A DNA stretch of 64,000 nucleotides from Promethearchaeati archaeon SRVP18_Atabeyarchaeia-1 (GTDB lineage: Archaea; Asgardarchaeota; Atabeyarchaeia; Atabeyarchaeales; Atabeyarchaeaceae). Both the position numbers and the translations under genes were made by a program. The notes beneath the pieces are model-generated. The model saw only the letters and a list, made by a program, of their open reading frames with translations, was not told the DNA's origin and made no database searches. Location of the stretch: the NCBI GenBank assembly GCA_037308085.1, contig CP147779.1, positions 864,001 to 928,000 of the forward strand, written 5' to 3'. This document shows, in pieces, positions 4,820 to 36,716 of this stretch (positions within the stretch are counted from its first letter, which is position 1; each line of letters starts with the position of its first letter).

Positions 4820-4975
4820 CTCTATCGATTCTCATGTGAGGTTCTGTCAAGTCTTCGGTTGAAGGCTTAACTGGCTTGCATCGACTTTCAGGATTGCCTC
4901 CTGCCGCTGTGAGGGTTCCTGCACCATCGCTTCACCTGCAAGTCCCGACGGGCCGAACCGCAGCCCTGCGCTAGC
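4820..4975 (-). ncRNA. Predicted orphan omegaRNA (reRNA) scaffold plus guide
   Basis: Nucleotide conservation with the tnpB 3' end at 35438-35566; TnpB omegaRNAs overlap the 3' end of tnpB and take their guide from the flank; boundaries inferred. Confidence 0.55.
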
Positions 4976-5096
4976 ATCCCGCTCTTATCTCCCCCCGCAT
5001 TCAGCTATGGAAAGCCACATGCCGCGAAAATGAGAGAATGCTTAGACGCCCAGAGTTCTTTCCACCATATAAATCAACCGCAGACTTGATAGAAGC
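4840..5096 (-). mobile_element. MITE-like internal-deletion derivative of a TnpB element that retains the tnpB 3' end / omegaRNA region
   Basis: 4840-~4970 aligns with 35438-~35566 and encodes a tnpB tail (AGLRFGPSGLAGEAMVQEP...DASQLSLQPKT*); 23-bp inverted repeats 4840-4862 and 5074-5096 (20/23 match); direct repeat TCATGTGA at 4832-4839 and 5097-5104. Confidence 0.85.
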
Positions 5097-5104
5097 TCAT
5101 GTGA

Positions 5105-5119
5105 CAAAGGTTTAAAATA
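5105..5119 (+). promoter_or_regulatory. Putative BRE/TATA promoter of cdhAB
   Basis: CAAAGG followed by TTTAAAATA upstream of cdhA. Confidence 0.55.
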
Positions 5120-5166
5120 AGGTAGGTTCAAGTGGTCTCTGACTAGAATATGGTTAATCGCTAATT

Positions 5167-35417: not shown

Positions 35418-35570
35418 TCGCACCGATTAAATGCTATGGTTCTGTTAACTCTTCGGGTGGTGAGTTAACTGGGTGGCATCTGCTCCGGGGATTACCTTTT
35501 CGCCTCCAGGGTTCCCCTTCACCACTTCACCTGCCACTCCCTTCAGGCTGAACCGCAGCCCTGCACCGAC
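35418..35570 (-). ncRNA. Predicted omegaRNA overlapping the tnpB 3' end; guide 5'-AUAGCAUUUAAUCGGUGCGA
   Basis: Segment conserved with the 4840-4970 copy; conservation stops at ...CAGAACC; boundaries inferred. Confidence 0.6.
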
Positions 35571-36695
35571 AATATTCAAAGCCGCGTTCACGTCCCTGTC
35601 TACGAGCTTCCTGCAGCGTGGACAGTAGACCTTCCTCCCCGCGCATTCGACTATCTTAGAGCCACATATCGCGCAGGTTGAGGAAGTCTTGCTTGGATTA
35701 ACGTAAAACACGTGGATTCCCTCCCAGTGTGCCTTGTAATCTATTTGCCGCTGCAGCTCGGCGTAGCTCCAGCTGTTCATCCTTGCCCTGTAGTCCTTGC
35801 CCTGCCAGTTTCCCCTCCTGTAGAGTTTACGGATGCCTCTAATGTCCTCCGTGACTATGCCGAACTGGTTTTCCTTCGCTTGCTTCACTATCCTTGCTGA
35901 AGTGTTGTGCAGGATCCAGTTTACCTTGTTCTTCTGGATTCTTCCATATTTGGAGTAGAGCTGTCTCTTGACGCGGCAGTCGTCTCGCTTGAAGCCGCGC
36001 TTTGCTTGCCTGCAGTTCTCCTTGACCACGGTCGCCCTCGACAAGTCATACCTCTTCACATCTCCAGCCGAGGACGCAGTGGTTACATTGTCGAGGTTGC
36101 GGTCTACCCCGACTAGCCCCACAGGCTCAACCTGAGCAACCTCTTTCGTGAAGGCTAGTGACACGGCGGAGGCGGTCAAGCAGGCCGAGCGCACAGCACA
36201 CCCCTCAATAGACTGTAATGTGTAGGAGTTCAGGGGGATGTAGATGTATTCTCTTACCCTTACGGGTAGTCTGAGCTCGCCGTTGGTTATCCTGAAGCCG
36301 TAGCAGTCGGTCAGCATGAGCCTTGCTGCATGGGGCTTCTTCATCCTCTGCTGCTTCCCCAGCGCGTGCCTGTGGTTCCGGAGGATGCCCGCGGCCTTGC
36401 TGATCGCCGTCAAGCGGTAGTAGGTTGGCACGTCGTATCCTGCGAGTTGATGGTAAGCCTTCTTTGAGAGCGCCTTCATCGACGTAACATTCTCAGCTAG
36501 GCCAATTCGTATGCAGTCATTCACCATCTCTCTAAACTCGTTCAGGAGGTCGAGTAACTGAGGAGATGGCGTGTAGCTCTGCTTGACCGCCTTGACCGCT
36601 TGCATACCCAAGAAAGAGACTATTTCGGCTAATAAAACCACCATATGACCAAGGGGCTAGCAGCGCCAACTATCACTCGAAGAGTTATCAGAGTG
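35438..36695 (-). mobile_element. TnpB-only element with terminal inverted repeats and an 8-bp target-site duplication
   Basis: Inverted repeats 35438-35459 and 36674-36695 (17/22 match); AATGCTAT at 35430-35437 and 36696-36703; contains tnpB only, no transposase. Confidence 0.8.
35445..36605 (-). CDS. tnpB: RNA-guided endonuclease TnpB (IS605 OrfB / Cas12f-like)
   Basis: RuvC triad intact (GVDRN, TEDI, DRDVNAALNI); Zn ribbon CAIC...CPRC; TTTTATTA at 36637-36630 favours a leaderless start at 36605 over 36644. Confidence 0.93.
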   Translation of the reverse strand: MQAVKAVKQSYTPSPQLLDLLNEFREMVNDCIRIGLAENVTSMKALSKKAYHQLAGYDVPTYYRLTAISKAAGILRNHRHALGKQQRMKKPHAARLMLTDCYGFRITNGELRLPVRVREYIYIPLNSYTLQSIEGCAVRSACLTASAVSLAFTKEVAQVEPVGLVGVDRNLDNVTTASSAGDVKRYDLSRATVVKENCRQAKRGFKRDDCRVKRQLYSKYGRIQKNKVNWILHNTSARIVKQAKENQFGIVTEDIRGIRKLYRRGNWQGKDYRARMNSWSYAELQRQIDYKAHWEGIHVFYVNPSKTSSTCAICGSKIVECAGRKVYCPRCRKLVDRDVNAALNIVGAGLRFSLKGVAGEVVKGNPGGEKVIPGADATQLTHHPKS

Positions 36696-36703
36696 AATGC
36701 TAT

Positions 36704-36716
36704 CAATCTTTATATA
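36704..36716 (+). promoter_or_regulatory. Putative BRE/TATA promoter of the metV-metF operon
   Basis: CAATC followed by TTTATATA upstream of the gene at 36826. Confidence 0.5.

Follow-up and report, generated by a model that had tools for sequence, protein, structure and literature searches.

Why should a transposable element that has lost its only gene keep the RNA that once lay at that gene's 3' end? The question is raised by a 257-bp repeat at positions 4840 to 5096 (minus strand) of the window, by which we mean the whole 64,000-nt stretch analysed here (CP147779.1, positions 864,001 to 928,000). The host is an Asgard archaeon of the Atabeyarchaeia group with a closed genome of 2.81 Mb and 49.6% GC. 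In the initial annotation the repeat was described as a miniature inverted-repeat transposable element (MITE) that lost tnpB, the gene of an RNA-guided nuclease, kept the region of its guide RNA (omegaRNA), and could supply a guide to TnpB in trans. We consider it probable that the MITE arose by one internal deletion of a tnpB-only element with IS6-type ends, that the RNA was kept, and that its guide acts with TnpB in trans.

Descent from a tnpB-only element with IS6-type ends

The MITE contains no open reading frame (ORF) of at least 60 aa. It is bounded by terminal inverted repeats (TIRs) on the minus strand. The right-end TIR, of the IS6 type (GGTTCTGTCAAGTCT...), lies at 4840 to 4862, where it also supplies the RNA described below with its GAACC tail and with the 3' arm of its terminal hairpin; the left-end TIR lies at 5074 to 5096. 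By eye the two are identical at 20 of 23 positions, the value originally given, and an automated repeat search of the ends returned 34-nt arms with 82% identity. Outside the TIRs are two copies of an 8-bp target-site duplication, TCATGTGA, at 4832 to 4839 (right end) and 5097 to 5104 (left end), which match at all eight positions. Directly 5' of the duplication, on the minus strand, is a TTG (CAA on the plus strand, 5105 to 5107) that resembles a transposon-adjacent motif (TAM). Both the duplication and the adjacent TTG were found as first described.

A BLASTN search of the whole genome found seven MITE copies of 257 to 269 bp, counting the one in the window (M1), at 72-78% identity to M1. All seven have sharp boundaries and identical internal deletion breakpoints, so the breakpoints are shared rather than random. 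The repeat has the properties of a MITE, being small and non-coding, with TIRs, a duplication, several copies and a longer relative, family 1.

That relative is represented in the window by a full-length element of 1258 bp at 35438 to 36695 (minus strand), which carries tnpB only. Its IS6-type TIRs are at 35438-35460 and 36673-36695, its duplication, AATGCTAT, is at 35430-35437 and 36696-36703, and its TTG, as CAA, is at 36704-36706. The tnpB gene runs from 35445 to 36605 on the minus strand with a likely start at MQAVKAV; the listed ORF extends to 36644. The homology originally noticed between 4840-4970 of the MITE and the last ~130 nt of this element was borne out by the whole-genome BLASTN search (72.7% over 132 nt, E = 3.6e-12). 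TIR positions 9, 12 and 20 differ between the two elements and are changed at both ends, in keeping with the co-variation of the TIRs noted at the outset. In composition the MITE equals the parent's last ~250 nt minus ~45 nt, plus ~45 nt of the parent's left end. The ~45-nt deletion follows the 5' hairpin of the retained RNA (4976 to 5050, minus strand), which is homologous to the zinc-finger coding part of tnpB.

The motif CCACCATAT, picked out earlier near the left end, is present at 5062-5070 in the MITE and at 36638-36646 in the full-length element. Because it is conserved in left ends across the family and lies upstream of MQAVKAV, we regard it as a subterminal or promoter-region motif; a coding remnant was rejected on account of this position. 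A TATA-like box, TTTATATG (5066 to 5073, minus strand), adjoins the left TIR on its inner side and is a putative archaeal promoter. The TTTATAT box is retained in five of the seven MITE copies, with variants in the remaining two.

Family-1 TnpB hits Cas12f1-like_TNB in Pfam and guided_TnpB in NCBIfam (123.7 bits), the solved structures closest to it are those of TnpB and Cas12f proteins, and its translation shows RuvC motifs (including DRDVN) and a CxxC...CxxC zinc finger. Three intact copies are present, and their pairwise ratios of nonsynonymous to synonymous substitution rates (dN/dS; 0.23-0.30) indicate that the gene is under purifying selection. In the genome contigs searched, the nearest relative of this protein was in a Promethearchaeati (Asgard) metagenome-assembled genome (MAG). 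A second tnpB-only family comprises eleven copies of ~1292 bp with a TnpB ~40% identical to that of family 1, and ~16 tnpB-only elements of the two families share IS6-type ends. There are also four independent deletion derivatives besides the MITE. The RNA scaffold is kept in three, of 381 bp (genome 763237-763617), 365 bp (genome 2751691-2752055) and 733 bp (genome 2135115-2135847), and mostly lost in the fourth, of 966 bp (genome 1254037-1255002; 40 bits vs ~140 for intact scaffolds).

The hallmarks of IS6 elements are GG tips, a CTGTT motif, inverted repeats of 15-20 bp and 8-bp direct repeats (PMC7986276). A genome scan with four TIR variants, allowing at most five mismatches, gave 69 hits against ~3 expected by chance by our calculation. 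These bound four kinds of element: family-1 tnpB elements with their derivatives, the seven MITEs, the second tnpB family, and two larger elements. The consensus of these short TIRs, GGTTCTGT(T/C)A..., contains both the GG tips and the CTGTT motif, and 16 elements have 8-bp flank repeats matching at seven or more positions. Of the larger elements, one (L005, 6.5 kb, genome 549276-555829) is flanked by TGGAGAAC with an 8/8 match, and the other (L006, 4.4 kb, genome 614149-618567) has a 7/8 duplication and perfect TIRs of the family-2 type. The genome has only two PF13610 (DDE_Tnp_IS240) genes, one inside each of them. The complete transposase, encoded on the minus strand at L005:896-2047, has 383 aa with an N-terminal SWIM zinc finger, and its best NCBIfam match is transpos_IS6 (E = 6e-35); the second gene, in L006, is truncated (251 aa).

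Elements of the IS200/IS605 and IS607 families have neither TIRs nor duplications (PMC13565253). The MITE has both, and its duplication separates the TAM from the left end, so that it does not belong with the IS1341 group or the palindrome-associated transposable elements (PATEs) of the IS200/IS605 family. Since its ends and duplication are those of the IS6 (DDE) family, the mover would differ from the transposase implied by the initial annotation. Judged by these features, the MITE would be a non-autonomous IS6-family element, as would the tnpB-only elements, and the IS6 transposase most likely mobilises all of them in trans.

Besides the transposase gene, L005 carries a 995-aa Eco57I/MmeI-like restriction-modification methylase and two proteins that have no Pfam match; the cargo of L006 is an HxlR-like winged helix-turn-helix protein, a weak aspartyl-protease-like ORF and a DUF4325-like ORF. 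In both, a second TIR copy of like orientation lies 65-78 bp inward of the right end (genome 555751 and 618502), that at 555751 being of the MITE type and preceded by CTTG and 8 nt. The inner copies could be nested remnants or additional transposase binding sites. In the window, a gene for a PmbA/TldD-family peptidase and one encoding a methylene-tetrahydrofolate reductase C-terminal-like domain flank the full-length tnpB element. Genome-wide there are ~42 TnpB-like matches from several unrelated families, which makes this genome unusually rich in OMEGA-type (obligate mobile element-guided activity) nucleases.

The retained RNA and its covariation

The core omegaRNA-like scaffold of the MITE, at 4840 to 4975 on the minus strand, was delimited by RNAalifold, pair counts and a covariance model. 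The seed alignment held the last ~135 nt of the seven MITEs and of four family-1 elements, and RNAalifold found 31 pairs in it. Its architecture comprises a hairpin whose CGGUUC loop is invariant, one long-range and one inner stem, and the terminal hairpin. In the seed set 97.7% of cells pair, compared with 25-41% when the partners are slid by one to three columns; nine pairs have changes on both sides, and none of 500 shuffles reached the observed covariation. The seven MITE copies taken alone show eight pairs with compensatory changes, one of which reads C-G, U-A, G-C and A-U across copies. Because all MITE copies share one deletion origin, this covariation argues that constraint persisted after tnpB was lost. 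Compensatory changes, named in the initial annotation as a check on the two scaffolds, are thus abundant.

The covariance model, R1, scored 143.7 bits at the M1 scaffold (genome 868840-868973) and, at all TnpB loci tested, matched the 3' end over its full length; among these loci were family 2, two relatives, contigs from metagenomes and homologues with a protein identity of 57-70%. Among 25 sequences outside model-building, 90.2% of cells pair (30-44% when slid) and 19 of the 31 pairs show double changes; fitting this alignment to the model works in favour of the structure, yet sliding the partners lowers the figure by a wide margin. A genome-wide search with R1 found 25 scaffolds, every one within a TIR-bounded element. 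Scaffolds of the family-1 type number nine without tnpB, against three beside an intact family-1 gene. R1 also gave 29 bits at the left end of one element in G001, a relative of the same genus (L023:1385-1464), where a hairpin like that of the right end follows the left TIR.

As in known omegaRNAs, the scaffold lies at the tnpB 3' end and the right end of the element, on the tnpB strand, and has a conserved secondary structure with covariation. We conclude that the MITE retains a complete structured RNA overlapping the tnpB 3' end and the right end. The earlier claim that tnpB was lost and the omegaRNA region kept therefore held, and for the whole 3' structured RNA.

The GAACC tail that immediately precedes the guide complements the CGGUUC loop of the first hairpin, and loop GGUUC and tail GAACC would be expected to form a 3' pseudoknot of the kind known for prokaryotic omegaRNAs (PMC13565253). 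The pseudoknot shows no covariation because loop and tail are both invariant. Searches of the window against Rfam gave no family at the gathering threshold and only chance-level matches at E <= 10. Folded as a single sequence, the MITE RNA is no more stable than shuffles (z = -0.95), and the structural support therefore consists of the covariation only.

The insertion site and its one-sided motif

Relatives provide the empty site. In G002, from another genus of the same family, the orthologous site has no element and reads ...GATTCTCATGTGACAAAAG..., with a single TCATGTGA and CAA; in G001 the site is also empty, with a diverged 8-mer, TCGTGTGA, and CAA. The insertion and its 8-bp duplication are thereby directly shown, and it follows that the TTG predates the insertion. 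No polymorphic empty allele was seen in contigs of four DNA runs from two studies, all of which carry the MITE here. For the full-length element at 35438, the size difference alone suggests absence from the corresponding G002 interval, and because the intergenic DNA has diverged its empty site could not be aligned base for base. Across the source genome, the 69 TIR hits were compared pairwise by their 8-nt flanks; of the 2346 pairs, 21 matched at seven or more positions, against 1.8 expected by chance; 16 of the 21 were the two ends of one element.

The TTG occupies positions -11 to -9 relative to the left (tnpB-upstream) end. It is at this exact offset in 11 of 18 left ends of family-1, MITE and solo type (binomial P = 4e-15 against a genomic frequency of 0.019), and within one base of it in 16 of 18. 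A scan of offsets showed no enrichment elsewhere and nothing on the right-end side. Family 2 has TTA at the equivalent place in 6 of 11 left ends (P = 2e-10). The ends of family 1b (five solo ends, one 381-bp derivative and the G001 copies) separate the influence of the TIR from that of TnpB, as they have the GTTACC-type TIR found in family 2 and in the 4.4-kb IS6 transposon. Family-1b ends carry TTG in 6 of 10 cases and never TTA; family-2 ends carry TTA in 7 of 12 and never TTG (Fisher p = 0.0006). Where the TIR type is shared, it is thus the type of TnpB, not the type of end, that the motif tracks. Its restriction to one side, abutting the first guide-matched base, is as expected of a TAM.

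The predicted 20-nt guide lies beyond the right end at 4820 to 4839 (minus strand); it reads UCACAUGAGAAUCGAUAGAG, as originally given, and its first 8 nt are the duplication. TTG, 8-mer and flank of the empty site are identical to the predicted guide and its adjoining motif, and the geometry of TTG and duplication therefore makes the empty site a TAM followed by a guide match. An omegaRNA would be predicted to take its guide from the flank past the right end and to have a TAM ahead of its target, and the predicted guide conforms on both counts. No second target of the guides was found in the genome with 0 or 1 mismatch over the first 16 nt, which fits a self-directed role and not host regulation.

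About half of the family-1 and MITE left-end flanks also have, 2-3 nt upstream of the TTG, a stretch rich in AT that resembles a TATA box (TTTAAAT, TATAAA). At the MITE locus this stretch (window 5108-5125) is the promoter-like box of the neighbouring gene, which encodes an 800-aa protein of the Prismane/CO-dehydrogenase family and begins ~70 nt downstream of the MITE. Either promoter-proximal insertion is favoured or the recognised motif is longer than TTG.

The arrangement is not confined to the source genome. TnpB homologues with 57-70% identity in a Bathyarchaeota MAG, a Thaumarchaeota MAG and a metagenome contig have IS6-type ends and 8-bp duplications. The Bathyarchaeota locus (L064) has TIRs matching at 19 of 26 positions, an 8/8 duplication and the motif ATG; the Thaumarchaeota locus (L065) has 18/26, 8/8 and TTG. 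Two metagenome contigs gave 17/26, 8/8 and TTA (L063) and 21/26, 7/8 and TAG (L070). The geometry of TAM and duplication recurs in the relatives and at the Bathyarchaeota and Thaumarchaeota loci. At distant homologue loci the right end alone was recognisable in four of nine, and a metagenome scan with the right-end pattern returned four loci only, one with a weak duplication and one with an apparent 5-bp repeat. A derivative of ~800 bp (L060, Ga0315280_10089747) has good TIRs and TTG at the usual offset; its flank repeat is the 5-bp AACAT only, a departure from the 8-bp rule.

Possible guiding in trans and the alternatives

These observations suggest how the MITE might work. The DDE IS6 transposase with its SWIM domain would move it in trans, and the TATA-like box at 5066-5073 would drive a minus-strand transcript through the scaffold into the flank, yielding an omegaRNA with the duplicated 8 nt at the start of its guide. 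This RNA would be loaded in trans by one of the three intact TnpB proteins of family 1; from the sequence evidence, a role for the MITE RNA as a TnpB guide is plausible. The complex would cut copies of the locus that lack the element, which present TTG, TCACATGAGAATCG... and the downstream flank. At the occupied locus the match would end after 8 nt, where the left TIR starts, and this locus would therefore be spared. Repair from the occupied copy would then spread or restore the insertion: cuts could spread it among chromosome copies, and where recombination between the 8-bp repeats has recreated the target, cutting could restore the lost insertion.

A wider proposal, which we hold tentatively and which may well prove wrong, is that a functional link joins TnpB and its guide RNA to an IS6-type DDE transposon, serving as a drive for homing or retention. 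Insertions would be directed to, or survive only at, TAM-N8 sites; each duplication would seed a new guide, and gene-less MITEs would borrow both proteins. TTG would be expected at about 1 in 50 random insertion sites, and by our estimate homing within a polyploid cell raises TAM occupancy only about ploidy-fold. Because an IS6-type transposase gives no obvious reason for an adjoining TAM, one of three things must hold: a much stronger drive, TAM-directed insertion, or an unusual oriented preference of the transposase.

Several points weigh against the interpretation proposed here. Post-insertion homing alone may not explain TAM occupancy of ~85% unless the drive is very strong. Two MITE copies, M2 (genome 673143-673403) and M5 (2198749-2199010), have no matching 8-bp flanks, and a search among the other ends found no partner flanks for either; rearrangement between copies may be the origin of the mismatch. 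TTG is absent at M5, and M4 has TTA. The covariation among MITE copies could partly reflect gene conversion with full-length elements. What identifies the putative MITE promoter is a TATA-like match, and what links the transposase to the MITE is the ends they share; the 383-aa transposase itself scores 120.7 bits, below the 125-bit equivalog cut-off of transpos_IS6. A search of the two close relatives did not find the MITE, so that its spread looks limited to the source lineage.

Could the MITE be a passive passenger, a deletion derivative that the IS6 transposase still moves and whose conserved RNA is simply inherited or maintained by gene conversion? TIRs alone should suffice for transposition, and the copies are few (seven), old (72-78% identity) and missing from close relatives. 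We nevertheless think this unlikely, given that compensatory changes distinguish copies of a single deletion origin, that MITE insertions follow the same oriented TTG rule as the tnpB-bearing copies, and that three of the four other independent deletion derivatives also kept the scaffold. The oriented rule bears equally on the suggestion that TTG and TTA are the IS6 transposase's own target preference and have nothing to do with TnpB. Some DDE transposases do have target preferences, and since the TIR variants of the two large IS6 transposons parallel the two TnpB families, two such tastes are conceivable. Yet a symmetric DDE synapse is not expected to sense orientation and the motif is found solely on the tnpB-upstream side, where it abuts the first guide-matched base as a TAM must; moreover, family 1b shares the GTTACC-type TIR with family 2 and has TTG, not TTA. 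A transposase preference therefore seems to us a rather doubtful account.

The remaining two explanations are less credible still. TnpB and omegaRNA are classically cargo of IS200/IS605 elements, and with three Y1 tnpA genes in the genome the MITE might have been a PATE moved by Y1 TnpA via peel-and-paste. However, 23-bp TIRs and 8-bp duplications are absent from the IS200/IS605 family (PMC13565253), and the three Y1 loci are single-copy, mutually unrelated in sequence and away from TIR-bounded elements. We rejected Y1 TnpA as mobiliser, as the duplication seen against empty sites contradicts it, and only the slightest chance is left to this account. That the MITE RNA is a decoy that titrates TnpB, or a regulator that represses the promoter of the neighbouring CO-dehydrogenase-like gene, would accord with the nine-to-three excess of orphan family-1-type scaffolds over intact family-1 tnpB genes and with the position of the MITE beside the TATA-like box of the 800-aa gene; TnpB-derived RNA-guided repressors are also known (10.1101/2023.11.30.569447). 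The guide, though, matches its own flank only, TnpB retains its catalytic motifs, and the other copies sit in unrelated contexts, all of which make such a role quite improbable.

We therefore return to a MITE whose guide acts with TnpB in trans, and compare it with known systems. The nearest precedent is the PATE: protein-less IS200/IS605 elements encode omegaRNAs that need TnpB in trans (Meers et al. 2023, 10.1101/2023.03.14.532601). Like the MITE, PATEs lack proteins, keep both ends and the guide-RNA scaffold, and require transposase and TnpB from elsewhere. They differ in having subterminal hairpins and neither TIRs nor duplication, with Y1 TnpA inserting them next to the TAM, whereas the MITE has IS6-type TIRs, an 8-bp duplication and a TAM outside that duplication. 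Branches of TnpB associated with DDE transposases have been reported (Altae-Tran et al. 2023, PMC10691335), and a review names ISL2, IS630 and IS1031 as the families (PMC13565253). In the parts of PMC10691335 available to us, such elements are TIR-bounded with the TnpB 3' end within 250 bp of the transposon end, and elements with TnpB alone have, as here, the same ends as those with a transposase, which implies that they are mobilised in trans. IS6 is not among the DDE families named for TnpB in the corresponding sections of the two articles; unlike the branches described there, the transposase in our genome is never beside tnpB, and neither a gene-less omegaRNA MITE nor the geometry of TAM and duplication is described in the main text of PMC10691335.

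The IS6 family itself offers little precedent. The review by Varani et al. (2021, PMC7986276) records two MITEs, of 227 and 336 bp, and only one family member that carries a passenger gene; TnpB and guide RNAs are recorded for no member. IS6 elements carrying cargo are said to be very rare. Our elements resemble the IS6/IS26 family in their GG tips, CTGTT, 8-bp direct repeats and DDE transposase, and depart from it in that the ends enclose tnpB or its RNA alone and that the transposase has an N-terminal SWIM zinc finger. Fanzor, likewise an RNA-guided nuclease in transposons with TIRs and target-site duplications, has its 5' duplication as part of the TAM and its 3' duplication within the RNA scaffold (PMC13565253); in our elements the duplication is variable, comes after the TAM and supplies the predicted guide's first 8 nt. 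By titles and abstracts, the papers found to join TnpB with the IS6 family concerned Deinococcus insertion sequences or antibiotic-resistance genomics only. What appears to be new is an OMEGA module, and a MITE reduced to its RNA, within IS6-type ends, with the duplication serving as the predicted guide seed.

TnpB has been understood as the partner of transposases that excise scarlessly, those of IS200/IS605 and IS607. In that setting TnpB re-cuts the vacated site, and the transposase ensures adjacency to the TAM. IS6-type elements are thought to transpose replicatively. IS6-type ends offer no obvious guarantee of a TAM, yet a TAM is present, oriented and specific to the TnpB family, which raises the testable question of whether TnpB helps a DDE transposon to select or fix its insertion sites. 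The MITE is a natural minimal guide-RNA cassette, made of a putative promoter, a scaffold and a flank, that has multiplied without its protein. If the wider proposal is right, homing or retention would be driven in a replicative transposon that is never excised, and a DDE transposase might choose its insertion sites in a TAM-dependent way.

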